A DNA stretch of 64,000 bases from an uncultured Gammaproteobacteria bacterium (GTDB lineage Bacteria; Patescibacteriota; Patescibacteriia; UBA9570; XYC2-FULL-38-9): positions 122,115 to 186,114 of the forward strand of contig CAYFNF010000001.1 of the NCBI GenBank assembly GCA_964344485.1, given 5' to 3'. The notes under the pieces were generated by a model that searched no databases, was not told the origin of the DNA, and worked only from the letters and a program-made list of their open reading frames with translations. Made by a program: the position numbers and the translations under genes. Below, piece after piece: positions 8,524 through 46,943 of the stretch; position 1 is the stretch's first letter, and each line of letters begins with the position of its first letter.

Positions 8524-8607
8524 GCCGGAGTGGTGGAACTGGTAGACACGCAGCGTTCAGGTCGCTGTCCGCATTAGCGGGTGAGAGTTCAACTCTCTCC
8601 TCCGGCA
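8524..8607 (+). tRNA. tRNA-Leu (anticodon CAG)
   Basis: Acceptor stem GCCGGAG/CTCCGGC. D-arm GGTAGAC. Anticodon loop tTCAGg. Long variable arm. T-arm GGTTCAACTC. CCA is not encoded. Confidence 0.8.
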
Positions 8608-8688
8608 CAGATAAACTTTTTTATCGCGAATGCATCTACGCGGAATTGATCCGTAAGATGTGTTGGCACTTAAATCGTAAATTGTTAT

Positions 8689-10704: not shown

Positions 10705-13700
10705 ATGATGATTACTATCACATGGAAGCAGTGGGTCCAGGCGTTTTGTGTTGGGCTCATTGGTTTAACGTGCATTGCGTTTTCCGCACATGCAGAAGAC
10801 ATTACCGCTGATGCTACGATTAGCGATGTTTCTTTTACGTCGACTTCGACTACACCTAGTGAGCCGACGACATTGACCATTTCATTTACCATTGCAGAAG
10901 AACTGGCAGAGCCAGAGCGGATCTATTTTCAGATTGAACCAACGGATTGTCAGGAAGATGATTCAGATAACTGTCGATATGATTTTTCTTCATTAACTGA
11001 TGGAGATCTTACTTTTAGCGGTCCAGGATCGTTAACAGTCGATCAAGCAAGTGAAGAAGGGAATTTCGAAGTACAGCTCTCGGAAAATCTATCAGCTGGA
11101 GCATATACTCTTTCTTTTAATGCAGTGAATCCGGCTGCAGAAGCTGCGCAGCGAATCCTTGCTCTGACTTCAACGTTTGACGGCTGTGAAGCAGAGACGC
11201 GATGTGGTACAGAAGATGAAGATGCGGTTGCAATCGGCACAGTATTAGTGACTGGAACTATTACGAACGGTGAAGGAATAGCTATTCAAACTCACGGGCA
11301 AGCACATGATGAGAGTTGGAGTCAGCAGGTGCACTTTAATTCAGGTCCGTATGGAAAGTATTGGATCTTCGGTGGCGGTTTTTCAAGCATCCAAGAGATG
11401 TATATTACGATCTATCCAGATCCAGAAGAGACTGGGGCTTCTACCCATACTGAGATCGTATCTTTAACCGGCGGAACCCCTGTAGTGCATAACTTCTCTC
11501 CTCCAGTAGCGAATAAGCATATTGTTGGATCTGTTACATATGAAAGCACTGGTGACCCTGTGACTGCTGTTTCATTGTATGTAAATAATGAAACCGGCGA
11601 CCATACAGGCGGTGATGTTGATGCAAATGGTGAGTTTGATATCTCCGTAAGCAGTGCTGGCCCACATGAGGTCTGTCTTTCGGATCATCATGAGTTGCAG
11701 ACGGATTGGTATACAGATAATTGGGAAGCCCGATGCAATACAGTTCAATTCACGGATGATGATTCAGAAGAGAGCGAGACTGTTAATTTTAAAGTAAAGA
11801 AAGCTGATGCGATGATCGTTGGAACAGTCTCTCCAACCCCATCTGAAGGTGGATGGATCTCTTTCTCAGCAGATGACCATTGGTTTGGTGGAAATGTCAG
11901 TGATACTGACGGTACATTTTCTGTAGCTGTTGTTGGAGGTGATACAACGATTTCAGCGACCACCTTGTTCGCTACTGCGGTATCAAGTACTGAGTATACC
12001 GTTTCGTATGAGGGATATGGAGATGATGATAACTACTATTTAAAAGCAGATCCTGTCACTGTTTCTGCAGGGGAGACCGTAGATGTTGGCACGCTAGCAT
12101 TAACAGAGAAAGACGTGACACTGACTATAACTGCCACTGATGGAGCAAAGCCAATTTCAGGAATGGATGTGAATGCATGGCAGCATAATGGAGGGTGGAC
12201 CAATGAACAAACAGATGATTCCGGTGTTGCAGTGTTAAAGCTATATGAAGGAACATGGTGGGTAGAGCCGTCTACGCATGACATGACACAATATACTAAT
12301 GAGGAAGGTGCATATGAGGTATCGGTGGTATCTGGAGATACTGGTACACATACGTTCACTCTAACTGCCACTACTCTTTCAGTAAATATTAGTTTGCAAG
12401 ACAGTGAGGGCGCTCTGTTGAATACGCTGCATGGATGGGCAGGATGTTGGGAGCCAGAGTCTCATCACGGAGGAATCGGTGGAAGTATTGATAACGGCGT
12501 AGCAACATTTGGTGCAGTTGCCGGCGACTATACTTGTAACGTGTGGGTCTCTGAGAACAGTCCATATCAATCAACCGGAGACCAGAACGTGACGTTTGTT
12601 GACGGAGAGGATGCGACCCTTCCATTTACTATGGTAGAGCGAACGTCAACATTGGTTGCGAACGTAAAAACTACTGATAATGAACTGGTGACAGACTCGG
12701 ATATGTACGTGTTTGCAGCAGGAACCACTGGTAGTTGGTCAGATGAAATTATTGGAGACGATGGGCAAGCAACGCTACTGCTCGCTCCTGGAACGTATCA
12801 TGTGGGTGTTCATAATCCTCACAAAGGAGGGGGAGGATTGACTGACTACATTCCATTAACTCAGTGGAATAGTGACCTTCAACTATTAGATGGAGAAGCA
12901 GTGAATACTACTGTGACCGTAGAAAGAGTTAATGCAACGGTAACCGCTACATTGACTGATCCTGATGGCAATCCAGTCGATTGGGCGCATGTAGGATGCG
13001 GCAACTGGCAGGAGATGGAAGGTGTAGTTCTAGCTGATACTGAAGGAGCGCGTGTTATTGAAAACTGGGCCCAGACCGGTTCAGATGGAGTAGCTGTTGT
13101 CGGGTTAGTGACTGGGCATGAGTATGAGTGCTGGGCCGGAGCGAGCAGTGATTCAGGATTTCTTAGCCCCGAGTCCCAACAAGCAAAATTACTTAACAAG
13201 GCTAATATCGATCTAACATTTCCATTCAGAGAAGCGGACGCCACTATCGAAGGAACAGTCAATGCACCCGGAGATGCTGAAGATTCAATCAGTGATCTCT
13301 GGTGTAATGCTTGGAGTGAGTCTGGTGCACATAGTCACAGCGGAAGTCATAATAAAGAGTTCTCGTTAAATGCCATTAAAGGCGACACATGGGGCATCTG
13401 GTGTGATGGATTTACTACTGCTGAAGATGGAACGCGCACGTGGTATCATTCAGAGGAAGATGAGAAGGTGGAGTTAAAGAAAGCCGGAGCGTCCACAGGG
13501 CATGAAGTGAAGTTAGTGGAGTCATGGTGGAATGCGTATGAAGGTGGAAGTTATACAGGTGACGGAACACAAGCAACAACTATTATTTTGCCAGATGGTG
13601 CAGAGCTATACATTCCGGCAAATGCGATTGTTAGCAGCGGAAATGAAACCATTACCTATGATCCAGTGTTCCATGCGTATCATTCATTTCAAGATTCACC

Positions 13701-14295
13701 GTTCGGTGTTCCATGGAATTTTGAAGCGTACGACGCCAATAATGTTCTTGTATCAGGCGACTTCAACTCTGCAGTTACATTGACCATTCCATATCGAGAG
13801 GAGGATCTGACAAAGATGGGTATTAATGAGGACAATGTTTTACCGAAAATCTATAATCCAGAGTCTGGTACCTGGGAGACGGTAGATAATGTGGCACAGA
13901 ATGAGGAGGCAAACACGATTACCTTTACTCTTTCGCACTTCTCCCAAGTTGGATTGGTCTATAACAAGCAGCGCGTTGGAACTGACTATAGCCCAGCGAA
14001 AAAGGTGAAGAAATTGAAGGTGAAAAAGAAGCTCCGCAAGAAGAAGCGAGTGACCGTGACCTGGAAACGTCACAAGTATCGAACGATCCTAAAGATCCAG
14101 AAGTGGAATAAGAAAAAGAAGAAGTACAAAAAGTTCAGAACTATTCGTGTGAAGAAAAACAAGAAGAAACGAATTGTGAGAAAATTGAAAGCAGGGACCA
14201 AGTATAGAGTCAAAGCGCGAAAGAGACGAACCGTGGATGGAGAGTACTACTTCAGTAATTGGACTAAGTGGGTGAAATTCAAGACTGCGGAGTAA
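10705..14295 (+). CDS. Large secreted or surface protein (1196 aa), Thr/Gly/Asp-rich, with a C-terminal lysine-rich fibronectin-III-like domain
   Basis: Signal peptide MMITITWKQWVQAFCVGLIGLTCIAFSAHA. C-terminus reads KRVTVTWKRH...KYRVKARKRRTVDGEYYFSNWTKWVKFKT. Confidence 0.7.
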   Translation: MMITITWKQWVQAFCVGLIGLTCIAFSAHAEDITADATISDVSFTSTSTTPSEPTTLTISFTIAEELAEPERIYFQIEPTDCQEDDSDNCRYDFSSLTDGDLTFSGPGSLTVDQASEEGNFEVQLSENLSAGAYTLSFNAVNPAAEAAQRILALTSTFDGCEAETRCGTEDEDAVAIGTVLVTGTITNGEGIAIQTHGQAHDESWSQQVHFNSGPYGKYWIFGGGFSSIQEMYITIYPDPEETGASTHTEIVSLTGGTPVVHNFSPPVANKHIVGSVTYESTGDPVTAVSLYVNNETGDHTGGDVDANGEFDISVSSAGPHEVCLSDHHELQTDWYTDNWEARCNTVQFTDDDSEESETVNFKVKKADAMIVGTVSPTPSEGGWISFSADDHWFGGNVSDTDGTFSVAVVGGDTTISATTLFATAVSSTEYTVSYEGYGDDDNYYLKADPVTVSAGETVDVGTLALTEKDVTLTITATDGAKPISGMDVNAWQHNGGWTNEQTDDSGVAVLKLYEGTWWVEPSTHDMTQYTNEEGAYEVSVVSGDTGTHTFTLTATTLSVNISLQDSEGALLNTLHGWAGCWEPESHHGGIGGSIDNGVATFGAVAGDYTCNVWVSENSPYQSTGDQNVTFVDGEDATLPFTMVERTSTLVANVKTTDNELVTDSDMYVFAAGTTGSWSDEIIGDDGQATLLLAPGTYHVGVHNPHKGGGGLTDYIPLTQWNSDLQLLDGEAVNTTVTVERVNATVTATLTDPDGNPVDWAHVGCGNWQEMEGVVLADTEGARVIENWAQTGSDGVAVVGLVTGHEYECWAGASSDSGFLSPESQQAKLLNKANIDLTFPFREADATIEGTVNAPGDAEDSISDLWCNAWSESGAHSHSGSHNKEFSLNAIKGDTWGIWCDGFTTAEDGTRTWYHSEEDEKVELKKAGASTGHEVKLVESWWNAYEGGSYTGDGTQATTIILPDGAELYIPANAIVSSGNETITYDPVFHAYHSFQDSPFGVPWNFEAYDANNVLVSGDFNSAVTLTIPYREEDLTKMGINEDNVLPKIYNPESGTWETVDNVAQNEEANTITFTLSHFSQVGLVYNKQRVGTDYSPAKKVKKLKVKKKLRKKKRVTVTWKRHKYRTILKIQKWNKKKKKYKKFRTIRVKKNKKKRIVRKLKAGTKYRVKARKRRTVDGEYYFSNWTKWVKFKTAE

Positions 14296-16405: not shown

Positions 16406-17722
16406 TTATGCTAGTTTTTTGATTGCTTCTTGGAATTGATCGCCGCGGTCCTCGAAGTTCTTAAATACCGAGTAGCTTGGAGACGCACAAGAGAGCAAGC
16501 AGACTTCTCCTGGTGGTGTATGGGTGTAAGCAAAACGTACTGCCTCTTCCATGGAAGAAGTCTCTAGCACTTGTTGCGGCAGGTATTTTTGCGCTTGGAG
16601 TGCGTTGCGGATCTGCTTCCCTGTATCAGGAAAGAGAATAATATTTTGAATTTCGAGCTCTTTAATTTTTTCAGCAAGTGTAGAGAAGTCATATCCACGA
16701 TCTTGTCCGCCCAGTAAGAGTGTACTAACATTCGGCACAGCTTCTAGTGCAGCAAGTGTTGATTCCGGAGATGTTGAGATGGCGTCATCGATGAAAGTGA
16801 TCTCTTGAAATGTCCCCACGGTTTCTAGCCGATGTGAGAGTGGCGCAAACGTTTTTAATCCCTGAGCAAGTGAATCCACTGGAACATCAAGCGCGATTGC
16901 AAGAGTACATGCAGCTATAGCATTCATAGTGTTATGCGCACCGATCAACGGAAGATCTTCAAGATCAATAATATGTCGGTCAGTATAGTAGAGCGCAGAG
17001 CGTAATTCTTGTACTGAATGTGTAGACGGAAATGCATGCTTTTGGGCAGCAGTTTCTTGTACAAGTTCGTGCAGCTCTTCATCTTGAGAATTGTAATAGA
17101 CGTGTTGTTCTGCTGTTTGCGTGGTGGTAATACAGAGTTTGTCAGCATAGTACTGTTCAACTGATCCGTGATAATCGATATGTTCAGGGAATAAGCTGAG
17201 TAGTACAGCGTACTCCGGGCCTTGCTGCAGGCGACTTGTTTGATAGCTAGACATTTCAAACACGAATACTGTTTCATCTGTGTATGGTTGAAGCAGCTCA
17301 TCTAACGCCGGTGTTCCGATGTTCCCAACTAACCGTGCGTCACGCTCTGCAGTCACCAGCAGATGGTGTAGTAGTGCACTGGTGGTGCTCTTTCCCTTGG
17401 ATCCGGTGATACCTACGACCACGCCCGTACACTCTTCTAGAAATATATTCGTTGCAGTCCAGATCTCTTTTGCTGTTTTAAGCAAGGTTGTAGACGGAGG
17501 GATACCTGGGGAGACTACTGTCACATCCCAGCTTTTCAAAGAGTCAGGATAGTCGTCCCCGTATAGTTTCTTTGCTGTCCCGACATCACCTTCTACTTCT
17601 TCTATATCTGCTATGGTACAGGAGACTCCAGGATATCGAGTCGTCAAATACCGTGCTGTCGCTTGTCCCTCGCGCCCAGCACCGAGAATGAGATATGATC
17701 TTTTACTGTAGCTTTTTTTCAT
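16406..17722 (-). CDS. murD: UDP-N-acetylmuramoylalanine--D-glutamate ligase
   Basis: N-terminus LILGAGREGQATARYL and the Mur ligase P-loop GITGSKGKSTT. 438 aa. Confidence 0.85.
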   Translation of the reverse strand: MKKSYSKRSYLILGAGREGQATARYLTTRYPGVSCTIADIEEVEGDVGTAKKLYGDDYPDSLKSWDVTVVSPGIPPSTTLLKTAKEIWTATNIFLEECTGVVVGITGSKGKSTTSALLHHLLVTAERDARLVGNIGTPALDELLQPYTDETVFVFEMSSYQTSRLQQGPEYAVLLSLFPEHIDYHGSVEQYYADKLCITTTQTAEQHVYYNSQDEELHELVQETAAQKHAFPSTHSVQELRSALYYTDRHIIDLEDLPLIGAHNTMNAIAACTLAIALDVPVDSLAQGLKTFAPLSHRLETVGTFQEITFIDDAISTSPESTLAALEAVPNVSTLLLGGQDRGYDFSTLAEKIKELEIQNIILFPDTGKQIRNALQAQKYLPQQVLETSSMEEAVRFAYTHTPPGEVCLLSCASPSYSVFKNFEDRGDQFQEAIKKLA

Positions 17723-19053
17723 AGTTGGTCGATTTGAGAAAGGTATGTTTGGAACTGCTGTGGTATCGCGTGTTCATCCGATACTGAGAATACTTCTTTT
17801 TTTAGAGCATGCATACGATCTTCTACAGTAGGATAGATATCATCAGAGAAATACTTCATTATAATATCTGATTCATACTCTCCCTGTTTCTTTATCAGAG
17901 CAAATGCCACAATCATCTCCTCGGGTGTTCCTACACACTCAAATGGCTTCTGTTCACCAAACCCAAATAATTGTTGATACAGTGGAAATAACGTTTCGTC
18001 ATTAATCAAATTCTTGTTGAATATTTTTACTATATTCTCCTTCGGAATGAACGGGGCTAGGACCGAAAACACAAATGCGCACTTTGGGCAGTGTCCGCAC
18101 CACGCCTGCTTTGCTTTTTTGGTTATAGAGAAATTTGCATTACAGCTAGTCGTGAGAGGATGCCATTTTGTTTTTTGTGAAAAGATTTCAGCAATGCGGA
18201 TTTCATATAACGGTCGTAATAAACTGAAGTAGGTGATATCAGGAGTGATGTAGTCCCGGACGTACGTTTGAAATAACTGTTCGAATTGAAAGCTCTTACT
18301 CCATTGATGGTTTACTTCGGTTCCTAGGTGCTGGACATTCCCATAGTTGGAGCTGCGTTCATTCGAGACAATAATGTATGGATTCCCAGTAGCTGCAGCC
18401 TGAAAGAGTGCAGTAAATGCGTAGATCATGGATATGGGGACGTGCCCATCATAGACACCGTCACTATTCAGCTTCAGCAGCTCTGGAGAGATTTCTCGAT
18501 TAATGCAATGGTGTTTATTCTTTATTTTTCGAACTTGTTTATTAATAATACTATAGGAGTTCAGACTATACGTTTCAAACGGTTGATCCATCTGTTGTAA
18601 CAGATGAACTGAGACTAGCGAGTCTTTCCCTCCGCCGAGCGGTATGAGTGATGGGCCCGGCGTTTCAATGGTGTACGGATTTGCTCGAGCGTTCTTATGG
18701 AATGGGAACTTCACTAATTCGCGAAAGTCAATGTCGTTCGTATAGTAAAACTCTCCAAGTCCTTGGGTATACACTAACTCCCAGAACAGCGCTTGTCGTT
18801 TATCCAGCTGCCCTGATTCAATTTCAATCTGTGGTGGACAGTACGCTTTCCAATAGCTAATACCTAGCGCTATGTGCAGGTTAAACAATAGATGATGCAA
18901 CGCTCCCTCATGAATTGTGTTGGTCATGTGTTTGAGCTTCAGTGTTTCTACAAACTCTGGGCCGTGTTCATATTCATAATAAAACCGCGCCGTAGAATGA
19001 CGTTCATCAAAATCGTATCGTTTGAAGATGAAGGTGTCTGGTCGAAGTGCCAT
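17719..19053 (-). CDS. Two-domain protein: an N-terminal domain of unknown function plus a QueC-like PP-loop ATP pyrophosphatase domain
   Basis: PP-loop GGGKDSLVS. QueC-like SNERSSNYGN and C-terminal TSC...WCGHCPKCA Cys cluster. Its stop overlaps the murD start (ATGA). Confidence 0.55.
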   Translation of the reverse strand: MALRPDTFIFKRYDFDERHSTARFYYEYEHGPEFVETLKLKHMTNTIHEGALHHLLFNLHIALGISYWKAYCPPQIEIESGQLDKRQALFWELVYTQGLGEFYYTNDIDFRELVKFPFHKNARANPYTIETPGPSLIPLGGGKDSLVSVHLLQQMDQPFETYSLNSYSIINKQVRKIKNKHHCINREISPELLKLNSDGVYDGHVPISMIYAFTALFQAAATGNPYIIVSNERSSNYGNVQHLGTEVNHQWSKSFQFEQLFQTYVRDYITPDITYFSLLRPLYEIRIAEIFSQKTKWHPLTTSCNANFSITKKAKQAWCGHCPKCAFVFSVLAPFIPKENIVKIFNKNLINDETLFPLYQQLFGFGEQKPFECVGTPEEMIVAFALIKKQGEYESDIIMKYFSDDIYPTVEDRMHALKKEVFSVSDEHAIPQQFQTYLSQIDQL

Positions 19054-19077: not shown

Positions 19078-20631
19078 TTACTCTGTCGCAGGAAGGATTA
19101 ATGATTGTCCGTTCATATCTTCCGGGATATCAATGCCTAGCAGATGTAGTACGGTCGGAGCTACATCACGCAGTGCTCCGGTTTCACGAATCTTAGCAGA
19201 TTTTTGCTCATCGTCAACTAGAATAAACGGAACAAAACTATCTGTATGATAGGTATGTGGTACTTCATGTTTTTCATCCCACATCACTTCTGCATCTCCG
19301 TGGTCTGCGGTAATGCACATGATCGCATGTTGTTTTTGTAGTTCTTCGTAAATTAGGCCCATTCCTTTATCGATAGCTTCACATCCAATGATTGCTGCCT
19401 CTTTATTGCCAGTGTGACCTACCATGTCTGCATTACAGATATTTGCAATGATCACATCATGCTTGCGCTCTCGTAGTTTCTCCGCGATCTGCTCTGCGAT
19501 AGGCACTGCTTGCATCTCTGGCTTGAGATCAAATGTTGCGATTTTGTCAGATGGAATCAGGTGTCGGTCTTCTCCCGGGAACGCAGTCTCTCTCATCGCG
19601 TTGAACACCTTGGTGAGGTACGCCCACTTTTCAGTTTCCGTGACTCGGAACTGTGTGAGGTTATTGTTGGCAAGTACTTCTCCCAGTGTATTCTTCATCT
19701 CAGTCTCTCGTCGTTCGAAAGCATACGGCGCATTCATGTTCTCATAGTACGGGAAGGTTGCTACGTAGTGTATCTGTGGTTGCACTTCTCTGATGAACGG
19801 TTCGAATCCCTGGTCGATTAACGCTTGAGTGATCTCTATCTCTCGGTCTACACGGTAGTTAAAATTAATCACTACATCATCATCTTTGAAGAAACCGTTC
19901 GGTTCAATCATAGTTGGTTGGATGAATTCGTCGTCCTCATCTTGTTTACGTGCAGCCTCAATAGCTTGTTCGATTGAGTCTGCGGTACGTTTTCCAATGC
20001 CCTGTGTGAGCATTCGGTGGGATTCTTCAATTCTCTCCCATCGATGATCGCGATCCATGACCCACCAACGACCCATGACACTCGCGATAGTTCCTACCCC
20101 GGCGCTTTTCATCTGTTCCTGCAAGCGCTCTACAAATACTGACAGAGATCGTGGAGGTGTATCTCGACCGTCAGCGAATATATGGATGAGGACTTGATCT
20201 TGTTTTAATCCATGTTCTGCTGCCATTTCTAATAATGTATGTAAGCATGCATCATAGGAATGCACCCCAGCGTCAGAGAGTAACCCAATAAGATGTAGCC
20301 GTGTTCCATTTTCTTTCGCCTTCTTTATACCTGCCATATACGCTGGGTTGTTTTTGAACTCCGCGCTTTCCAGTGATTGCTGGATGATCATCTGCGGAAG
20401 CATGACGTTCCGTCCTGCGCTGATAATAAGGTGCCCCATCTCTGTAGATCCTTGGTGTCCAGGGTTCAGTCCAATGTGCTCTCCTGCAGCTCCGATTGCT
20501 CCGTTTGGATACGTTGCTAATAAGTGGTCAATGTTCGGGGTATTGGCGAGAAATATAGAATTATGCGCGTCGTCTTCTCCGATGCCCCACCCATCAAGAA
20601 TGAGTAGCACAACTGCTCGTTTTGCGTTCAT
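19078..20631 (-). CDS. gpmI: 2,3-bisphosphoglycerate-independent phosphoglycerate mutase
   Basis: MNAKRAVVLLILDGWGIG is a canonical iPGM N-terminus. Start trimmed from 20760 to 20631 (ATGA overlap with the upstream gene). Confidence 0.85.
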   Translation of the reverse strand: MNAKRAVVLLILDGWGIGEDDAHNSIFLANTPNIDHLLATYPNGAIGAAGEHIGLNPGHQGSTEMGHLIISAGRNVMLPQMIIQQSLESAEFKNNPAYMAGIKKAKENGTRLHLIGLLSDAGVHSYDACLHTLLEMAAEHGLKQDQVLIHIFADGRDTPPRSLSVFVERLQEQMKSAGVGTIASVMGRWWVMDRDHRWERIEESHRMLTQGIGKRTADSIEQAIEAARKQDEDDEFIQPTMIEPNGFFKDDDVVINFNYRVDREIEITQALIDQGFEPFIREVQPQIHYVATFPYYENMNAPYAFERRETEMKNTLGEVLANNNLTQFRVTETEKWAYLTKVFNAMRETAFPGEDRHLIPSDKIATFDLKPEMQAVPIAEQIAEKLRERKHDVIIANICNADMVGHTGNKEAAIIGCEAIDKGMGLIYEELQKQHAIMCITADHGDAEVMWDEKHEVPHTYHTDSFVPFILVDDEQKSAKIRETGALRDVAPTVLHLLGIDIPEDMNGQSLILPATE

Positions 20632-21428
20632 ATCTTTACGTTGCGTATTAATGGTTTTGTTATTTTTCCGTTGGTTGCGATGACGTCTCTGGTAGTAGTC
20701 GTTGCAGGGTTTCCTTTTGGATCTATTAACTCTCCTCCGGCTTCTTGCACAATGCACCAACCTGCAGCGAAGTCCCAGAGATTGATATCAAGATTAATAT
20801 AGAAGTCCATTCCACCGCGAGCGACATTCATTAAATCAAATACTGCACAGTAATTCACTCGCATACCTTTAGTGCTCATAAGTAGCGGATTGGCAATTCG
20901 TTTATATTTATTTCGCGATGCATTGGTTGCGGTAAACCCGATAGAGAACATGCTTTGTTTCATGCGGGTCACAGACGAGACCTTACAGCGCAGTTTCTTT
21001 CCTCGGTCGTTGCCGACGTTCTGTGTTCGCCATGCACCTGACCCGGCTTCTGCCCAATACAGTTCTTGCAGTGCTGGCATGGAGACCACACCAAGGTATG
21101 GTTGGTTGTTATGTAGTAGAGCAATGGAGATGCCGAACATAGGTTCGCCCATGGTATAGTTAACTGTTCCATCAATTGGATCAATCACCCAGAGCCACTC
21201 TGCGTTTTTTTCGCTCCCACGACCGAGCTCCTCAGAGAAGATGCTATGTGAGGGGAACGTCTTGGTGATGACTTCTCTAATCGCTTTATCACATTCAATA
21301 TCAGCACGAGTAACAAGATCGCGCCAGTTTTGTTTTGTCTGTATTGCGATGTTTTTTCTCCAGTATTTTAGTGCAATAGAATCAGCTGCTTTTTGCGCTC
21401 GGAACGCTGTTGCAAGTGTTTTTGTCAT
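20628..21428 (-). CDS. Inositol monophosphatase family protein (SuhB-like)
   Basis: WVIDPIDGT metal-binding motif. 266 aa. Confidence 0.8.
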   Translation of the reverse strand: MTKTLATAFRAQKAADSIALKYWRKNIAIQTKQNWRDLVTRADIECDKAIREVITKTFPSHSIFSEELGRGSEKNAEWLWVIDPIDGTVNYTMGEPMFGISIALLHNNQPYLGVVSMPALQELYWAEAGSGAWRTQNVGNDRGKKLRCKVSSVTRMKQSMFSIGFTATNASRNKYKRIANPLLMSTKGMRVNYCAVFDLMNVARGGMDFYINLDINLWDFAAGWCIVQEAGGELIDPKGNPATTTTRDVIATNGKITKPLIRNVKI

Positions 21429-38678: not shown

Positions 38679-39821
38679 ATGTCACTATTCGGTTCGAATG
38701 AAAGCTATTTAGGTATCGATATCGGTAATTCAGCGCTAAAAGTCGTTGAATTAGAGAACGTGAAAGGCCGGCCAAAGCTGTTGACCTATGGGTATTTAGA
38801 GCAATCCAACGAGATCCTGACTTCTAATACAAAAGAGGCAAAAGATAAGATCATTTCAGGACTGGAACACATTCAGAAAGAGTCTAGGACCACTTCGCGT
38901 AACGTAGTTGCAGCACTACCGAGTTATACGGTTTTTACCTCGATCATCCATCTGCCCGAGATGCCAAAGAAGGAGCTAGTTGCAGCAGTGCAGTGGGAAG
39001 CTAAGAAGTTTGTACCCATGCCGCTAGAAGAGATGATTCTGGACTGGAAAATTTTAGAAGACACTAAAGTAGATTCCACTTTTTCCGCCAATGCTGCTGG
39101 TCAGAATGCAGCGCAACAGCAAGAAGCACCAGCACAAGCCGAGGGAGAGAGCCCAAAGATTAAGACTAAAGGCAAGAAGATTTTAAAGATTCTATTAACT
39201 GCAGCACCAAAGGACTTGGTGTCTCGTTATTTAGAGATCTTCAAAGAAGCAAAAATGAATTTAGTGAGCTTGGAGACAGAGAGTTTTGCACTGGAACGAG
39301 CGCTCATTGGTAATGATAAATCTCCGATTATGCTCATTGATGTTGGTGCAGTCGCTACCACGATTAGTGTAGTAGTAGATTCTGTGCCGCTCATTAACCG
39401 TAGTATTGATATCGGTGGACATACCATCACGAAAGCGATCGCGAATAGCTTGAATTTAGATGTGGCCCGAGCAGAGCAATTTAAAAAAGATTTTGGATTA
39501 ACCGAACAAGCAGGTGCAGCAGCAGGGCAGGTACCAAAGCGCATTGAGTTCATGGTATCGTCTATTATCAACGAAATTAAATACGTATTGAATCTATATC
39601 AGAGCCAGGGGCAGGGAAATATTGAAAAGATTGTGCTCGCCGGCGGTTCCGCATGGTTGCCGAATATCACTCAATATCTGAGTCAGGTATTAGGAGTTAA
39701 AGTATTTATCGGGGATCCATGGGCACGCGTGATGTATCCATTAGAGATGAAACCAGTTCTTCAACAACTTGGTTCACGTCTCGCTGTGGCAGTCGGGTTA
39801 GCAATGCGAGAGATCAGCTAA
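38679..39821 (+). CDS. pilM: Type IV pilus assembly protein PilM (actin-like ATPase fold)
   Basis: YLGIDIGNSALKVVELE N-terminus. 380 aa. First gene of the pil operon. Confidence 0.8.
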   Translation: MSLFGSNESYLGIDIGNSALKVVELENVKGRPKLLTYGYLEQSNEILTSNTKEAKDKIISGLEHIQKESRTTSRNVVAALPSYTVFTSIIHLPEMPKKELVAAVQWEAKKFVPMPLEEMILDWKILEDTKVDSTFSANAAGQNAAQQQEAPAQAEGESPKIKTKGKKILKILLTAAPKDLVSRYLEIFKEAKMNLVSLETESFALERALIGNDKSPIMLIDVGAVATTISVVVDSVPLINRSIDIGGHTITKAIANSLNLDVARAEQFKKDFGLTEQAGAAAGQVPKRIEFMVSSIINEIKYVLNLYQSQGQGNIEKIVLAGGSAWLPNITQYLSQVLGVKVFIGDPWARVMYPLEMKPVLQQLGSRLAVAVGLAMREIS

Positions 39822-39874
39822 TGCAGGTGTTGAGGAGGTGTTCTTTGTAAGCAGTATGTACCATCACTACGTCT

Positions 39875-41218
39875 ATGGGCGACATTGATTTTATATCATC
39901 AGACAAGGAGGAAAAACGATCACGGAAACGTCGGGATGATCGTGGTGTTGAGTATACGTCAGGAGAACGGCTCGACGCGCCTCCGAAAGAGAAGAAGCTC
40001 AAGGATAAGAAGAAAAAAAAGGATAAAAAGAAGAAGAAAGAGAAGACATTCAAGCAGTGGAAAAAGGAGAAAGCCAAGCAGCAGAAACCAGAGAAGACGA
40101 AAGGCCCGCAAGATCATATTCCAGAAGCACGAGAACGAGATGACGCTCCAGATTTACTGGATGATTTTGAACGTGCACAAGAGAGCACGCCAACAGTTCA
40201 TGACGCTCCAGAACGAGGAAAGGACGACGCGCCAGATTTATTAGATGCAGCAGCAGCCTCAGCGAAACCGGAGCCACCAGTACCGCAAGAGGACGAAGAG
40301 GTCGCTCCGGATCTATTACATGAATTCACCACACCAAAAGATATCGGGGAGCACCCAGCGCCGAAGCGCGATAAAGAAGAAGCAGGCGCTGAATTGCTTG
40401 CAGCAGTCACTACGGTTCATGATATTGGCGAGCATGAGGTAAAGAAGGCATTGCATAAAGACAGTGCTCCGGACATGACGCAAGTGCGGTCCGGGCCAGA
40501 GGTGCCAGAACCTGAGCGAAAAAAAGTACAGAAGAAGAGAAAGAAGCAGACGAAAAAGCAGGCGCAGCAACAGAAGAAAGGCGCTGCTCGCCCAATGTTC
40601 TCCTTAGGTGTAAATTTGATTCCAGATGAAGTGATTGCAGAGCTGGAGACACGCAATCGGTTGTTAGATTTGGGGTATACTGCACTCGGCTTGATTGCGA
40701 TTGTGTTGTGTGTGTATGGAGCGATGAATATTTACCAGCGTAAGATCGATATCGATATAGAAACCATCAAGCAAGAGATTGAATTAACGAACAGTGACAT
40801 TGAATCATTCCGGCAAGTGCGTACGGAAGCGCAGGATATGCATGATCAACTAGGCGCGCTTACTGATGTGATTGATCAACATGTCTATTGGACTCCGTTA
40901 ATTGAGACTGTTGAAGAATTAACCCTACCGACCGTGTATTATCGCTCTATGAGCGGCTCAGTTCGTACACGCAAGTTCACATTCGAAGTTGTAGGTACGG
41001 ACTACGGTCAAATCGAGAATCAAGTATGGGTATATGAACAGTCACCGTATGTACAGTCTGTCACCACTAGTGCTGCGTCGCAGTATTCTCCGTCAACAGA
41101 GATAACGGAATCCGGAAACGAAGAAGCTGAGACCGAAGAAACCGATGAAGAGCAGTACGTGTCGTTTTCTTTAGTGGTGGAATTTTCGCCTGAATTGTTT
41201 CACCGAGTAATACAATAG
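39875..41218 (+). CDS. pilN: PilN-like pilus assembly protein with a long disordered N-terminal extension carrying repeated acidic APDLL motifs
   Basis: K-rich segment, then three to four [DE][DE]xAPDLL[DH] repeats, a TM helix (LGYTALGLIAIVLCVYGAMNIY) and a PilN-like periplasmic domain. Confidence 0.6.
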   Translation: MGDIDFISSDKEEKRSRKRRDDRGVEYTSGERLDAPPKEKKLKDKKKKKDKKKKKEKTFKQWKKEKAKQQKPEKTKGPQDHIPEARERDDAPDLLDDFERAQESTPTVHDAPERGKDDAPDLLDAAAASAKPEPPVPQEDEEVAPDLLHEFTTPKDIGEHPAPKRDKEEAGAELLAAVTTVHDIGEHEVKKALHKDSAPDMTQVRSGPEVPEPERKKVQKKRKKQTKKQAQQQKKGAARPMFSLGVNLIPDEVIAELETRNRLLDLGYTALGLIAIVLCVYGAMNIYQRKIDIDIETIKQEIELTNSDIESFRQVRTEAQDMHDQLGALTDVIDQHVYWTPLIETVEELTLPTVYYRSMSGSVRTRKFTFEVVGTDYGQIENQVWVYEQSPYVQSVTTSAASQYSPSTEITESGNEEAETEETDEEQYVSFSLVVEFSPELFHRVIQ

Positions 41219-41220
41219 CT

Positions 41221-41877
41221 ATGAATTTTGATTGGAGAAAAATCTATCGAGCACTGAACGCATTTATCACTCGGTTTTATAAGTTTTTTCTTGTTGCTGA
41301 AGTGCTGATCATTTTCTTTATCGGCTGGCTAGTGTTGTTGCGCGGGGAGTACCGCATTATTCAAGAGAGCGGCGTGCTTGAGTATGATTTAGTGACTGAG
41401 CAATTACAAGATCAGCAGGATCGCCTGGTGGAGTTGCGATATCTAGAAGAGCAATATACCACATTGGATCAAGAGCGATTGCGACAACTAGAAGAGGTGC
41501 TTCCGCATTCCTACAATCCGACGGCGCTGATCACGACCATGAATCAATTTGCAGAGCAAGCATCCATTGAGATCGCAAGCATTGACGTAGCACAGACCGG
41601 AACTATAACCACTGAAACTACTAGTACTGCGACAACGGATTCTGGAGAAGAGGAGGAGACAATAGTGGAAGTAGCGAATCCTAATATCAAGACCGTTACA
41701 ATTACGATGAATATCAAGAACAATGAAGGGACATATGGAGAATTGAAGTATTTCCTCTCCGCGCTCGAGACCTTTGTACCTATTCTTGATATGCGACAGC
41801 TTTCATTTTCACCTGGAACCGACAGCATGGCACTACAGTTACAGACATACTATTTTAATTCATCCTCGGCATTATGA
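41221..41877 (+). CDS. pilO: PilO-like pilus assembly protein
   Basis: N-terminal TM helix, then a coiled-coil region and a small periplasmic domain. Position between pilN and pilP. Confidence 0.55.
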   Translation: MNFDWRKIYRALNAFITRFYKFFLVAEVLIIFFIGWLVLLRGEYRIIQESGVLEYDLVTEQLQDQQDRLVELRYLEEQYTTLDQERLRQLEEVLPHSYNPTALITTMNQFAEQASIEIASIDVAQTGTITTETTSTATTDSGEEEETIVEVANPNIKTVTITMNIKNNEGTYGELKYFLSALETFVPILDMRQLSFSPGTDSMALQLQTYYFNSSSAL

Positions 41878-42836
41878 CACCTTCGATCGAAGAACGAAAA
41901 CGAGTACGACGCCGGAAGAAGCAGTTCCGAACACACCATACATCTGGAAAGGAGATTGTATTGTTAGCATTGGTAACAGTGATCGGGGCCTTGGCAGTGT
42001 ATACATCTCAAGATAGACATACTGCGTTTGGCTTGATGGCTGAGTACGCGTACGCAGACGAGATTCCTATTATGACGTCGTTCCGAGTGGAGCCGCTCAT
42101 TAGCGAAGCTGTTCTTGAGCTGGATTTTACAGTAGGCGAAGACGATGTTGTGCAAACACAAGGAATTCTGGTTGACGCAACTAATCCCCCTCCAGTGGAA
42201 GAGGTGCAAGCGTTGAATACTCGTGTGGGAGGGGAAGTCGCTCTGTTCTGGATACGACCCGAGATCGTCTCCTCAGTAAATATCTATCGACGAGAGTTGC
42301 ATGCAGAAGAAGAGGAAGAATTTGAACTTATTCAAGAAAACAATACAGAGCTGTCCTATATTGACGAAGAAGTCAAGAACACTGTGATGTATGAATATCA
42401 GCTTTATTCAACTATGAAGTATGAAGGTGAGTGGCATGAATCCAAGAAATCGCTATCCATTGTGGTACAGCCAGCAGATGAGATTCCACCGTTCTCTCCA
42501 ACTGATATCACCGTGACTACGATAACGACAAAGAAGGGCGCTGCAGGACTTCAGATCTCCTGGGCGAATCCAACTGATGAGGATTTTGATCATGTAAAGA
42601 TATATCGATCCTCAGATTATGGTACGCGTGGAGAAGAGATCGTCACAGTGAAGAAAGGAAAGGATACTACCTATGTAGATACAGAAGCAGATACAAATGT
42701 GATTCAGTACTACACCGTGGTGTCGTACGATGTTGCAGGCAATGGGTCGAGTGAGGACTTCCAAATTCCACTTGCTGGCAACCAGAACCCATTTGCTCCA
42801 TTTCAAGATAATACTCAGCCGAATGAAGGACAGTGA
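41874..42836 (+). CDS. PilP-like / Fn3-like domain pilus assembly protein
   Basis: TM helix IVLLALVTVIGALAVY. Beta-rich C-terminal region. Operon context. Confidence 0.45.
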   Translation: MTPSIEERKRVRRRKKQFRTHHTSGKEIVLLALVTVIGALAVYTSQDRHTAFGLMAEYAYADEIPIMTSFRVEPLISEAVLELDFTVGEDDVVQTQGILVDATNPPPVEEVQALNTRVGGEVALFWIRPEIVSSVNIYRRELHAEEEEEFELIQENNTELSYIDEEVKNTVMYEYQLYSTMKYEGEWHESKKSLSIVVQPADEIPPFSPTDITVTTITTKKGAAGLQISWANPTDEDFDHVKIYRSSDYGTRGEEIVTVKKGKDTTYVDTEADTNVIQYYTVVSYDVAGNGSSEDFQIPLAGNQNPFAPFQDNTQPNEGQ

Positions 42837-44553
42837 TAAAGTAACAATCCTAGAACAGATACAAAGCCGACAGTTGTTATCTCCTCAACAGCTGACGGAA
42901 TTAGCAGAAGAGTCTCGTGCTTCCGGGACTGATATGTTGGATTTGATAGTCACACAGCAGTTGATTGATGAAGAGCAGTTTACAGAAGTAAAAGCTGAGG
43001 TACTTCGAGTTCCGTATGTGCATTTGGTTGATCAAGACATCCCTAATGATGTGTTAAATCTGGTGAGCCAGGATATTGCAGAGAACTACCAACTGGTTCC
43101 GTGGTCAAAGCAGGAAGGAGAAGTGTCGGTTGCAATGGCAGATCCGCATGATTACAAAGCAATCGAAGCATTAGATTTTATTGGACGTAAAGAGAATATT
43201 AAATGGAAGTACTACCTTGCCTCTGATTCAAGCATTTCGTCTGTATTGCGGCAGTACGCGGATCTCACAGACGAGGTCGCTGAAGCGTTGCAAGCTAGCG
43301 AAGAAGGGATGCACGAGGATATTGAAGAAGAAGTGGAAGACTCGGTAAAGAGCGCGCCGATCTCCAAGATGGTGGCAGTGATTTTACGTTATGCAGTGGA
43401 AGGGAGTGCATCGGACGTGCATATTGAACCGACGAAAGACGGTACTCGAGTACGCTATCGTGTGGATGGAGTACTGCATACCTCCTTGCAGATGCCCAAG
43501 AACGTTCACAATTCATTGGTGGCAAGAATCAAAGTACTAGCGAATCTAAAACTAGATGAGACGCGCTTACCTCAAGACGGACGGTTTCATAGTCAGATAG
43601 AAGGACGAGAGGTTGATTTCCGTGTCTCGACATTACCGGTACTTGGTCAAGAGAAAGTGGTGTTACGTATTCTAGATAAAGCAATTGGTATTCGCACCCT
43701 CGCTGAACTTGGGTTTCATGATCGGAATTTACATATGATCGAGAATCATTTAGAGCGTCCACATGGAATGATCCTGGTCACTGGACCGACTGGTTCTGGT
43801 AAATCCACAACACTGTATTCGATTCTACAGGACTTGAATCAAGAAGAGCGGAATATCATTACACTAGAGGATCCAGTAGAGTACAACATGCCAGGGATCT
43901 CTCAGTCACAGATCCATCCGGAGATCGGGTTGACCTTTGCGCGCGGTCTTCGTTCTATCTTGCGTCAGGATCCAGACATTATCATGGTCGGTGAGGTTCG
44001 AGACAATGAAACAGCAGAGCTAGCGATTCATGCTGCGCTCACAGGGCACATGCTCTTGAGCACGTTGCATACAACTGATGCGCTTGGTGCGATTCCGCGA
44101 TTGATTGACATGAAAGCAGAGTCATTCTTGATTGCTTCAGCGCTCAATTTGGTGATTGCTCAGCGGTTAGTGCGAAAGAACTGTGTAGACTGCGTGACAG
44201 AGACACAGCTACCAGTAAAAACAGAGAGTGAAGTATTGCGTGAACTACAATCTATTCCAGAGAAATCTCTTCCAAAAGACATCACCATGAAGTTACCGTT
44301 AACAGTCTATCACGGAGTAGGCTGTCCGAAATGTGAAGGGAGTGGATATCACGGTCGAGTTGCTATCTCTGAGGTGATTGAGATCACTCCACGGCTACAA
44401 GACATCATCGCTTCTGAGGAGATAAATCAATTTGAGTTAGTGCATCGAGAGCTGGAAGAACAAGGTATGGTGAATATGCGCCAAGACGGTATTATCCTTG
44501 CGCTTCGAGGTCAGACCACTATTGAAGAGGTGTGGACAGCAACAACTGAGTAA
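42823..44553 (+). CDS. pilB: Type IV pilus assembly (extension) ATPase PilB/GspE
   Basis: GSPII_E N-terminal domain. Walker A GPTGSGKSTT, Asp box LEDPVEY, Walker B DIIMVGEVRD and His box GHMLLSTLHT are all intact. Confidence 0.9.
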   Translation: MKDSDKVTILEQIQSRQLLSPQQLTELAEESRASGTDMLDLIVTQQLIDEEQFTEVKAEVLRVPYVHLVDQDIPNDVLNLVSQDIAENYQLVPWSKQEGEVSVAMADPHDYKAIEALDFIGRKENIKWKYYLASDSSISSVLRQYADLTDEVAEALQASEEGMHEDIEEEVEDSVKSAPISKMVAVILRYAVEGSASDVHIEPTKDGTRVRYRVDGVLHTSLQMPKNVHNSLVARIKVLANLKLDETRLPQDGRFHSQIEGREVDFRVSTLPVLGQEKVVLRILDKAIGIRTLAELGFHDRNLHMIENHLERPHGMILVTGPTGSGKSTTLYSILQDLNQEERNIITLEDPVEYNMPGISQSQIHPEIGLTFARGLRSILRQDPDIIMVGEVRDNETAELAIHAALTGHMLLSTLHTTDALGAIPRLIDMKAESFLIASALNLVIAQRLVRKNCVDCVTETQLPVKTESEVLRELQSIPEKSLPKDITMKLPLTVYHGVGCPKCEGSGYHGRVAISEVIEITPRLQDIIASEEINQFELVHRELEEQGMVNMRQDGIILALRGQTTIEEVWTATTE

Positions 44554-44566
44554 TTTTTTTACACAT

Positions 44567-45625
44567 ATGGACACAGCAGAACAACTCGCAATCCAAAAGA
44601 TCATCGCTATGGTAGACACCTACCGAGCGGCGTCTTTACATCTTTCGGTTGGAAATCCACCGATGATTCGTGTGGGAGAGAAGTTAGTGCCAGTTCCAGA
44701 GCAGTCCATTGTGACTCCAGAGTTTATGGAGCACATTATTGAAGCTTGGCTTGATGAGAAGAATACTGAACGGCTACAGGTGAATAAAGAATTGATTATT
44801 GCAAAGACATTCGAGACGAAGAAGCGGTTTCGTATCTCTGTGTTCTACCAGCAAGGGCACTTGAGCGCGACGTTGATTCCAATACCTGATGTACTACCGT
44901 CGATTGCAGAGTTGGATCTTCCATCTGAAGCGCAACAGCTCGTAAATTACAAGTCCGGACTCGTCTTATTTATTGGTCCATATAATTCACAAAAAGCGAT
45001 TACTGTCGCGAGCTTTATCGAATATCTTAATCAAACAGCACAGAAGAGTATACTGACGATCGAACACCCAGTTGAGTATCTGTTTAGCGATAACCAATGT
45101 GTGATCGATCAGCGCGAGGTTGGCAAAGATGTGCACAGTACTACTCAGGGGTTGGAATTTGCATTGAATGAGGATGCGGACGTGATCATGGTTTCAGAAT
45201 TAACGGACAGTGAAAGTTTCCAAAAGGTATTAGAGCTTACGAATACTGGTAAGGTGGTCTATGCACTACTGCATGTGAATACTGTACCTTCGGCTATTGA
45301 TACGTTTATTCATAGCTTCGATGCGTCGGATCAAGGGCAGGCACGTGCGGAGCTGGCTTCGAATTTAGTCGGTATTATAAATCAGCGTAGCTTGGTAAGT
45401 AGCACTGGAGATAAAGTGAGTATCTCGGAGGTGATGATACCGAATCAAGCAGTGCGCACGATTATTCAGAAAGGAGAGGTATATCAAATTAACAACATAC
45501 TGCAGACCTCTCGAGGTGAAGGCATGAGGAGTCTGGACGCAGCGCTGCGTTCAGCAGTGGAAGCCGGCAAGATCAGTCAAGCAGAAGCAGCAAAGGTTGC
45601 AGTAGACCGTTCACAGTTTCAATAA
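44567..45625 (+). CDS. PilT-like retraction-ATPase homologue with degenerate catalytic motifs (probable pseudo-ATPase)
   Basis: Aligns to PilT, but Walker A is GPYNSQKAIT (vs GPTGSGKSTT), the Asp box is IEHPVEY (D to H), and the His box is GKVVYALLHV (H to K). Confidence 0.7.
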   Translation: MDTAEQLAIQKIIAMVDTYRAASLHLSVGNPPMIRVGEKLVPVPEQSIVTPEFMEHIIEAWLDEKNTERLQVNKELIIAKTFETKKRFRISVFYQQGHLSATLIPIPDVLPSIAELDLPSEAQQLVNYKSGLVLFIGPYNSQKAITVASFIEYLNQTAQKSILTIEHPVEYLFSDNQCVIDQREVGKDVHSTTQGLEFALNEDADVIMVSELTDSESFQKVLELTNTGKVVYALLHVNTVPSAIDTFIHSFDASDQGQARAELASNLVGIINQRSLVSSTGDKVSISEVMIPNQAVRTIIQKGEVYQINNILQTSRGEGMRSLDAALRSAVEAGKISQAEAAKVAVDRSQFQ

Positions 45626-45631
45626 TACGAT

Positions 45632-46840
45632 ATGGCAGAGTTTGTATATAAAGCACGTAATAGAGCCGGAGACTTAGTTGAAGGCTCGCTTGATGCACCA
45701 ACTATGGAAGTGGTGCAAGACACGATTCGCGAAAAGGATCTGATTTTACTTTCTGTGCGTAAAATGTCTGACCGACAGGTGCTGCAGCGAGTACAAGAAT
45801 TAACGCGCGGCGTTAAAGCAAAAGAGATTGTGGTGTTTGCACGACAACTGTCGACACTCATCTCGGCAACAGTTCCGATTGTTCGGTCTCTGCGAATTTT
45901 AATAAAACAGACTGAGTCCAAAGTACTGCGCACGATCGTCACAGATATTGCTGATGAAGTTGATGGTGGATCGAGGTTGTCTGCTGCCTTGCATCGACAT
46001 CCACGTGTGTTTGACGACTTCTTTGTACACATGATCCGTGCTGGGGAGACCACTGGTCGTCTGGATGAGGTCTTACTTTACTTAGCTGAGCAGAAAGAGA
46101 AGGACTATCAATTAATGCAGCGTATTATTAGCGCATTGATCTATCCAGTATTCATTGTCCTTGCACTTATTGCAATCTTTTTCTTCATGATGATCTACGT
46201 TGTTCCGCGCATGTTAACGGTAGTGATAGAAAGCGGTGCTGAGTTACCGTTAGTTACTAAGATATTGATTACAGTGAGTGATTTTATGCAGGGATTCTGG
46301 TGGTTGTTTGCTATTCTTGCTCTCGCTGGGATCGCTGCGTACGTGATGATGAAATCTAATCCAATGAGTAGACGGTTCTTAGACGAACAGCGGTTACGTA
46401 TTCCGGTGCTCGGTAAGATTATGCACCATATTTACATTGCACGTATCAGCCGCAGCCTCGCGAATCTACTTGCTGCAGGCGTACCAGTAACACGGTCGAT
46501 CGAGATCTCTGCTGATATTGCGGGAAACTATCTCTATCGAGAGATTCTACTCCAAGCGCGAGAAGATGTGGAAGCCGGGCATTCGCTCTCTGAGTCATTA
46601 GAGCGGCATAAATGGGTTCCGCCTATGGTCACGCAGATGATGGGGGTGGGTGAAGAGACCGGGCGTATGGACCAGATCCTTGTTAAAGTTGCTGATTTCT
46701 ATATAGGAGAAGTAGACTCACTCACCAATGCATTAGTGAGCTTGATTGAGCCGATTATCCTAATTTTATTGGGCATTGGTGCTCTTATCATTGTTTCAGG
46801 AATCTTGTTACCGATCTACACGATTACGTCGCAGTTTTAA
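45632..46840 (+). CDS. pilC: Type IV pilus inner-membrane platform protein PilC (GspF family)
   Basis: MAEFVYKARNRAGDLVEGSL N-terminus. Two GspF repeats. 402 aa. Confidence 0.85.
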   Translation: MAEFVYKARNRAGDLVEGSLDAPTMEVVQDTIREKDLILLSVRKMSDRQVLQRVQELTRGVKAKEIVVFARQLSTLISATVPIVRSLRILIKQTESKVLRTIVTDIADEVDGGSRLSAALHRHPRVFDDFFVHMIRAGETTGRLDEVLLYLAEQKEKDYQLMQRIISALIYPVFIVLALIAIFFFMMIYVVPRMLTVVIESGAELPLVTKILITVSDFMQGFWWLFAILALAGIAAYVMMKSNPMSRRFLDEQRLRIPVLGKIMHHIYIARISRSLANLLAAGVPVTRSIEISADIAGNYLYREILLQAREDVEAGHSLSESLERHKWVPPMVTQMMGVGEETGRMDQILVKVADFYIGEVDSLTNALVSLIEPIILILLGIGALIIVSGILLPIYTITSQF

Positions 46841-46863
46841 AAGAAGAGAGGGTCTCTAGAGAG

Positions 46864-46892
46864 TTGTTGCGTATTTGTATCTATGGTATAAT
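46864..46892 (+). promoter_or_regulatory. Extended -10 promoter upstream of pilA (TGgTATAAT)
   Basis: tggTATAAT at about 46884-46892, with a weak -35 TTGTTG 17 nt upstream. Confidence 0.5.
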
Positions 46893-46943
46893 ACAGTATA
46901 TTCATTTATATATATAAATAATTAAGTAATAACGTGCGAAACC

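Follow-up and report, generated by a model that had tools for sequence, protein, structure and literature searches.

Which function should be attributed to a protein with the motifs of QueC when its gene overlaps the start of a gene for a MurD-type ligase? The question is raised by a 64-kb stretch of contig CAYFNF010000001.1 from an uncultured bacterium (hereafter the window, that is, the whole piece of DNA that was analyzed), in which two such genes follow each other on the minus strand. An original prediction, made from the sequence alone, had taken the first gene product for a QueC-like amidating enzyme, fused to an unassigned N-terminal domain, that would modify the D-glutamate (D-Glu) or another carboxylate of a cell wall precursor in place of MurT/GatD. 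Our analysis leads to a different answer: the gene pair very probably represents the known MurD2/MurL route to peptidoglycan D-Glu, operating in a Patescibacterium similar to Kerfeldbacteria. The two genes are therefore called murL and murD2 here (table 1).

The MurD2/MurL system was discovered in 2017 and is already represented by dedicated models in Pfam and NCBIfam. Xanthomonas oryzae has neither glutamate racemase nor D-amino-acid aminotransferase, and its MurL reaction is unidirectional, using one ATP and forming AMP (PMC8788868, PMC5808125). ATP/Mg-dependent L to D epimerization is known for the enzymes of X. oryzae, Micromonospora, and Salinispora (PMC8788868), and two reviews by the discoverers have hypothesized that it proceeds by adenylation of the α-carboxylate (PMC8788868, PMC5808125). 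The distribution given in the 2021 review encompasses some Gammaproteobacteria, a few Alphaproteobacteria, and rare actinobacteria (PMC8788868); orthologues of low similarity in cyanobacteria, a fungus, and an amoeba are mentioned in addition by the 2018 review (PMC5808125).

The family membership of the 444-residue MurL protein of the window was evaluated with profile and pairwise comparisons. The protein matches NF041275 (MurL_Xanthmoales, UDP-N-acetyl-alpha-D-muramoyl-L-alanyl-L-glutamate epimerase) with an E value of 1.6e-113 and 379.6 bits, the match running end to end from residue 7 to residue 439 (model positions 9-444 of 447). The domain pair MurL_N (PF26299) and MurL_epimerase_C (PF26298) is present in the precomputed annotation of an identical protein and of every homologue in a large protein collection, and several of the homologues already bear the name of this epimerase at JGI or NCBI. 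Alignment with the MurL of Dokdonella soli, which NCBI has named via the equivalog model, extends over the full length with 33% identity (E 5e-96). A local Pfam-A scan of the same protein returned no family at E <= 0.1 and no match to QueC. The family is large, for it comprises at least 7,450 clusters when grouped at 90% identity and, at 50% identity, 2,748 clusters with E <= 1e-3 (1,206 of these with E <= 1e-30), while at least 591 stretches matching MurL occur in a collection of species-representative genomes. By its sequence the protein is assigned to the MurL-type peptide epimerases and, by homology to the characterized enzymes, it would act on the glutamate carboxylate of the UDP-MurNAc peptide.

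Residue conservation was followed in two alignments, one of 44 homologues having 42-63% identity to the window protein and the other of 21 sequences from Patescibacteria, Xanthomonadales, and loci labeled Alphaproteobacteria, Pseudomonadota, or Oscillospiraceae. The latter has 54 invariant columns, which include GGGKDS, H204, E232, H249, K253, R280, the four Cys of the C-terminal cluster, and C373. The GGGKDS motif, which aligns with the PP-loops of TtuA and Escherichia coli QueC, is invariant at all six positions from G140 to S145 in the 21-sequence alignment; in the 44-sequence alignment G140, G142, D144, and S145 are invariant and G141 and K143 are at least 90% conserved. A similar pattern is found in the Cys cluster, with all four residues invariant among the 21 sequences and, among the 44, C304, C319, and C322 invariant and C325 conserved at 90% or more. 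Such conservation in both alignments argues that neither motif is a product of chance. The cluster matches in pattern, when aligned by eye, the C-terminus of E. coli QueC (TCYNGFKGDGCGHCAACN), with SCNANF............WCGHCPKC of MurL corresponding to TCYNGF......GCGHCAAC of QueC. In the structure of Bacillus subtilis QueC the equivalent four cysteines bind Zn, and we infer the same role for those of MurL. The C-terminal helical part of the protein carries a third conserved motif, KPF(D/E)CVGT, in which K369, P370, C373, and G375 are invariant in both alignments and F371 and V374 in that of 21 sequences. C373 may have a catalytic role, and candidate catalytic residues would comprise, in all, the invariant H204, E232, H249, K253, E258, R280, E284, C373, and E379.

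The relationship with QueC becomes clearer at the level of the predicted fold. A full-length AlphaFold model built on the 44 sequences has a predicted local distance difference test (pLDDT) of 95.7 and a predicted template modelling (TM) score of 0.94, and its top match in a Foldseek comparison with PDB is QueC 2pg3 (E 3e-5, probability 1.0, TM score 0.59 on the target). QueC 3bl5 is also matched (E 6.5e-4), followed by the QueC-like proteins YcfA and Cap9 and then by TtuA, argininosuccinate synthase, and MnmA, all of which are PP-loop ATP pyrophosphatases. A PDB sequence search with the single MurL gave nothing meaningful (chymopapain, E 0.34), and the profile of 44 sequences gave only borderline PP-loop matches, namely TtuA (E ~0.01) and the PP-loop protein MJ0690. 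When the MurL family profile was compared directly with E. coli QueC using hhalign, only a 51-residue PP-loop segment was aligned (probability 36%); the correspondence of the Cys clusters thus rests on their pattern together with the fold match of the whole model. As modelled, MurL has a PP-loop, QueC-like core of adenylating type. Such a core, in which a carboxylate is adenylated with release of pyrophosphate, would account for the published requirement of MurL for ATP and its conversion to AMP. Both reviews gave the protein no domain assignment (PMC8788868, PMC5808125).

In the model the PP-loop domain has its first strand at residues 135-138, ahead of which lies an N-terminal domain made up, in this order, of three strands, one long helix, a further strand, and two helices. 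This domain carries the conserved motifs SY.K and GLGEF.Y.N, with S66, K69, Y95, G98, L99, G100, E101, F102, and N106 invariant in the 21-sequence alignment. Modelled alone (pLDDT 89.2), it shows no significant match to solved folds, the best having an E value of 0.016 and TM scores of 0.33-0.37. This best match, to the connection/RNase H region of human immunodeficiency virus reverse transcriptase (TM score ~0.35), was attributed to chance. The domain is common to all MurL proteins and is therefore not a fusion specific to one lineage. Several elements of the original prediction are thereby borne out, namely the PP-loop, the Cys cluster arranged as in QueC, and the QueC-like core. The N-terminal extension of about 130 residues that it had noted before the PP-loop is equally real, but turns out to be the conserved MurL_N domain and not an odd fusion.

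The partner ligase contains the Pfam domains Mur_ligase_M and Mur_ligase_C, with a match to MurD-like_N under its gathering score. It scores 306.9 bits with the TIGR01087 murD model, above its cut-off, so that annotation pipelines will name it a D-Glu ligase. The residues that determine substrate stereospecificity point to another assignment. In the alignment with E. coli MurD (published mature numbering), Asp182, Lys348, and Ala414 are replaced in the window ligase by Glu, Arg, and Pro, the residues found in X. oryzae MurD2 (E197, R358, and P433); Leu416 is replaced by Tyr at the position of F435 in MurD2, and Lys319 by Ile. Mutagenesis has identified E197 and R358 as the stereospecificity-determining positions of MurD2, for which P433 and F435 are also given as determinants; the E197D/R358K double mutant of MurD2 becomes a D-Glu ligase, and K319T enables E. 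coli MurD to accept L-Glu (PMC8788868). The published P433A and F435L mutants of MurD2 have unchanged specificity.

These substitutions are not peculiar to the window. Among 77 MurL-linked ligases, including that of the window and with about 74 informative at each position, Glu occurs in 53 and Asp in 14 at position 182, Arg in 72 at position 348, Pro in 69 at position 414, and Tyr in 60 and Phe in 10 at position 416. At position 319 there is Ile in 66 and Leu in 5, so that Lys has been replaced by one of these two residues in 71 of the 74 informative sequences; its loss may be the more general marker. The ligase of a Lysobacterales locus (L079) has Glu, Arg, Pro, and Phe, exactly the published MurD2 pattern. 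By comparison, inspection by eye of the control D-Glu ligases shows Asp, Lys, Ala, and Leu in the MurD of both E. coli and Pseudomonas aeruginosa and Thr, Arg, Ala, and Trp in that of Streptococcus agalactiae, all three having Lys at 319. On these sequence comparisons the window ligase, which the original prediction had considered a D-Glu-adding enzyme, is better read as an L-Glu-adding enzyme of the MurD2 type.

The physical association of the two genes was then surveyed in 80 related genomic loci. In the window the junction on the minus strand reads ...CAA CTA TGA / ATG AAA AAA, with ATGA common to both genes, as the original prediction had noted. In 76 of the 80 loci murL is followed, on the same strand, by a gene of MurD type; in the remaining four the sequence ends at or soon after murL, and only one of them (L010) shows a weak ligase fragment. 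The ligase overlaps murL, is fused to it, or follows within 60 nucleotides in 72 loci: the open reading frames (ORFs) overlap in 33 (15 of which have the 4-nucleotide overlap of the window), are separated by a gap of 60 nucleotides or less in 11, and form a single ORF of ~770-900 codons in 28. In four loci the gap is larger, 0.5-3.3 kb; two of these are from Gracilibacteria, in which genetic code 25 makes ORF calls with table 11 unreliable. MurL is the N-terminal partner in 27 of the 28 fusions (for example L039:6001-8523, an ORF of 840 codons, and L004:5989-8553), the reverse order being found once, on a Parcubacteria chromosome (L067, 4639-7275). Fusions in both orders are also present among representatives of the clusters at 50% identity (P0460, P0464, and P0491). 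Complete Patescibacterial chromosomes with a murL gene include CP066689.1, OZ246396.1, and OY970378.1. The loci with fusions are labeled Saccharibacteria, Peribacteria/Peregrinibacteria, Moranbacteria, Uhrbacteria, Staskawiczbacteria, Falkowbacteria, and Parcubacteria. The tie between the gene and a MurD-type ligase, for which the original prediction had proposed a survey of synteny, is therefore confirmed well beyond the window. Such pervasive linkage and fusion constitutes strong evidence that MurL and MurD2 act consecutively, and would be consistent with translational coupling or channelling between the two enzymes.

Table 1. Position in the window of the murL-murD2 gene pair, of the domain and motifs of MurL, and of the first gene in the same run.
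Feature	Position	Strand	Basis
MurL, assigned by family (444 residues)	17719..19053	-	NCBIfam NF041275, Pfam pair, Dokdonella soli MurL alignment, AlphaFold model
MurL N-terminal domain, ~residues 1-130, Pfam MurL_N	18664..19053	-	predicted secondary structure, conservation
PP-loop GGGKDS, residues 140-145, predicted ATP pyrophosphatase/adenylation site	18619..18636	-	translation, conservation
Cys cluster C304-x14-C319-x2-C322-x2-C325, CNANFSITKKAKQAWCGHCPKC, residues 304-325, presumed Zn site	18079..18144	-	translation
KPF(D/E)CVGT motif with C373 as candidate catalytic residue, C-terminal helical part	17926..17949	-	translation
ATGA overlap of murL stop and murD2 start, 4 nucleotides	17719..17722	-	sequence
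MurD-type ligase with MurD2 signature (438 residues)	16406..17722	-	Pfam, TIGR01087, residue signature
Inositol-monophosphatase-family gene, first of co-directional run	20628..21428	-	

By analogy with the enzymes of Xanthomonas, Micromonospora, and Salinispora, the overall reaction of the pair would consist of L-Glu ligation followed by unidirectional epimerization with conversion of ATP to AMP. In the scheme that we propose, the MurD2-type ligase would add L-Glu to the cell wall precursor and MurL would then bind ATP at GGGKDS and adenylate the α-carboxylate of the terminal L-Glu, with release of pyrophosphate. The resulting activated species, having an acidic C-α proton, could be the acyl-adenylate itself, an oxazolone derived from it, or a thioester formed with one of the conserved Cys residues; N-acyl amino-acid adenylates readily give 5(4H)-oxazolone. 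The C-α proton would be taken off and then returned from the opposite face; stereoinversion and hydrolysis would free AMP and the D-Glu product, in a route that would need neither free D-Glu nor glutamate racemase. We infer adenylation at the PP-loop, the identity of the intermediate, and the catalytic base or bases.

A number of observations weigh against the assignment to the MurD2/MurL route and deserve consideration together. The score with NF041275 does not reach its equivalog cut-off of 700 bits, and the window MurL has only 33-36% identity to named Xanthomonadales MurL proteins; because the cut-off is tuned to Xanthomonadales and the model is lineage-specific, the lower score restricts automatic naming, not homology. 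None of the characterized enzymes of the route is from Patescibacteria. The presumed Zn site and the candidate catalytic residues have been derived from sequence pattern only. The window ligase has Tyr where Xanthomonas MurD2 has Phe, and 14 MurL-linked ligases (L002, L004, L005, L007, L014, and others) have Asp at the position of E197. Most of these 14 retain Arg, Pro, the aromatic residue, and Ile at the remaining positions, so that the published two-residue determinant is not universal. The canonical MurD controls amount to a small set, the three structurally characterized proteins only. Finally, although the window speaks for the route in that neither Asp_Glu_race nor a class-IV aminotransferase domain was detected in it, this result covers ~40 ORFs in 64 kb of a contig of at least 335 kb, a fraction of the genome. 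Some of these points would suit a diverged MurL paralogue acting on another acyl-amino-acid or nucleotide-sugar peptide beside an ordinary MurD, with D-Glu provided by a racemase encoded elsewhere: the score under the curated cut-off, the ligase score above the cut-off of the TIGR01087 murD model, the 14 linked ligases in which Asp takes the place of the signature Glu, and the restriction of the genome data to the window, outside which a racemase could be encoded. We nonetheless regard this alternative as improbable, in view of the near-universal linkage and fusion, in both orders, over several Patescibacterial lineages, the Arg, Pro, aromatic, and Ile or Leu residues at the specificity positions in ~70 of the ~74 informative linked ligases, and the invariance of the MurL active-site candidates across the sampled taxa.

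The amidation envisaged in the original prediction would have MurL adenylate a stem-peptide carboxylate and then amidate it with ammonia, for example converting D-Glu to D-isoglutamine, and so replace MurT/GatD. Its appeal lies in QueC being the nearest solved fold, with a chemistry that proceeds from carboxylate to amide to nitrile, in the PP-loop and four-Cys pattern common to QueC and MurL, and in the tight coupling to a MurD-type ligase. Yet characterized members of the family epimerize with ATP and Mg only and require no nitrogen donor (PMC8788868, PMC5808125), every candidate catalytic residue is common to Xanthomonadales MurL, and a partner ligase with L-Glu determinants implies the need for an epimerase. 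No QueC Pfam match was found on the protein itself. There is also no MurT or glutaminase gene nearby, the absence of which the original prediction had suggested verifying; the sole match to the MurT model scores 13.6 bits, versus a cut-off of 800, and falls on the ligase. Amidation is thus very unlikely, and the proposal that contained it had itself named assignment to a known family as evidence to the contrary, which is what the homology search has produced in placing the protein among the MurL epimerases. The Cys residues could alternatively coordinate a [4Fe-4S] cluster that serves sulfur or redox chemistry, instead of Zn, in a PP-loop enzyme similar to TtuA, which is the best match of the sequence profile in PDB (E ~0.01) and recurs among the fold matches; five Cys are moreover conserved in the 21-sequence alignment. 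The TtuA match is limited to the PP-loop segment, however, the spacing of the Cys follows the C..CxxCxxC of QueC, whose structures are the top fold matches, and the published aerobic activity of MurL needed only ATP and Mg (PMC8788868), all of which renders this possibility extremely remote.

With the MurD2/MurL route retained as the preferred interpretation, the proteins of the window can be compared with those of known systems. MurL shares with its Xanthomonadales counterparts homology over the full length, the two-domain architecture, the invariant PP-loop, the four Cys, the KPF(D/E)CVG motif, and a gene that directly adjoins that of a MurD2-type ligase; it differs from them in the limited identity and NCBIfam score already mentioned and in having a Patescibacterial host, outside the published distribution. 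The ligase resembles MurD2 in its three-domain Mur-ligase architecture, in the Glu, Arg, and Pro at the equivalents of E197, R358, and P433, and in lacking Lys at the K319 position, but has Tyr instead of Phe at the equivalent of 435 and passes the generic murD model. With QueC (2pg3 and 3bl5) MurL has in common the PP-loop nucleotide-binding core, the C-x(n)-CxxCxxC pattern in the same place, and carboxylate adenylation as the expected first step. The identity is only 12-14%, and MurL has 444 residues, including the additional N-terminal domain and a C-terminal helical extension of ~110 residues, whereas QueC is a single-domain protein of ~220-230 residues. Substrates and outcomes also differ, with epimerization followed by hydrolysis expected for MurL as opposed to amide and nitrile formation by QueC. 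MurT/GatD, the lipid II isoglutaminyl synthase, resembles MurL in changing the stem-peptide glutamate at the expense of ATP, but MurT has a Mur-ligase fold, acts on lipid II in partnership with a glutaminase, and generates ADP, thereby differing in fold, substrate stage, and chemistry. MurI, like the MurD2/MurL pair, supplies D-Glu for peptidoglycan; it is unrelated in fold to MurL, acts reversibly on free glutamate with no cofactor, and was not found among the window ORFs scanned.

On balance we favor the broader proposition that MurL is an elaborated QueC-type PP-loop adenylating enzyme with a four-Cys (Zn) site and that MurD2/MurL is a mainstream D-Glu route across Patescibacteria, often fused and in either order, although it has been described as restricted to a small number of proteobacterial and actinobacterial genera. 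The PP-loop, QueC-type fold and the Patescibacterial breadth of the route and of its fusions may go beyond the papers that could be searched. Searches for MurL together with Patescibacteria (or candidate phyla radiation) or with PP-loop retrieved, from a searchable literature that was accessible in part, nothing beyond PMC8788868 and PMC5808125. The Pfam MurL domains and the product names given by JGI already recognize the family in such genomes, and consequently the unpublished part may be small. The practical consequence concerns annotation first of all, since a "hypothetical protein" followed by a "D-glutamate ligase" is better read as an ATP-dependent peptide epimerase and an L-Glu ligase. 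In the heavily reduced genomes of Patescibacteria, the lack of a glutamate racemase does not imply that synthesis of D-Glu or of peptidoglycan is lacking too. The QueC-like PP-loop fold would also offer a concrete basis for one-way epimerization with ATP converted to AMP, together with a list of invariant residues for mutation, and the natural MurL-MurD2 fusions lend themselves well to structural studies of this pathway, a proposed target for narrow-spectrum antibiotics.

The genomic context agrees with a Patescibacterial host, the closest named relatives being Candidatus Kerfeldbacteria and the "Patescibacteria group" for both the NAD-dependent DNA ligase of the window (61-68% identity) and MurL (49-51%). 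The murL and murD2 genes end a tight co-directional run of four genes, in which they are preceded by the inositol-monophosphatase-family gene and by iPGM, with a gap of 24 nucleotides between iPGM and murL; a convergent MscS-like gene lies beyond murD2. Within the stretch 19078-21428 (minus strand), the longest ORF for iPGM starts at TTG and has an implausible basic leader. Its start is likely the ATG at 20631, where ATGA is shared with the stop codon of the inositol-monophosphatase-family gene upstream. A scan for promoters and terminators from 16.0 to 21.7 kb found sites no more frequently than in shuffled sequence.

Additional features of the window lie outside the gene pair. Scanning its whole length with Rfam at the gathering thresholds gave no match, tRNA families included, while ARAGORN reports a tRNA-Leu (CAG) at 8524-8608 (plus strand). 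The genes at 38679-47465 (plus strand), which were considered as a possible dcw cluster and rejected as such, form a type IV pilus cluster encoding PilM-like, PilB, PilT, and PilC proteins and a prepilin with an N-terminal methylation motif, interspersed with several ORFs that have no family match. Two tandem paralogues of 460 residues, 57% identical to each other and belonging to no Pfam family, are encoded at 60188-61570 and 62126-63508 (both on the plus strand). The G+C content around them is 0.55-0.58, compared with ~0.44-0.46 over most of the window, and the stretch may be a horizontally acquired island. Lastly, an ORF of 1196 codons at 10705-14295 (plus strand) encodes a protein with an N-terminal hydrophobic segment and a C-terminal part of ~110 residues with an extreme abundance of Lys and Arg (KKVKKLKVKKKLRKKKR...).

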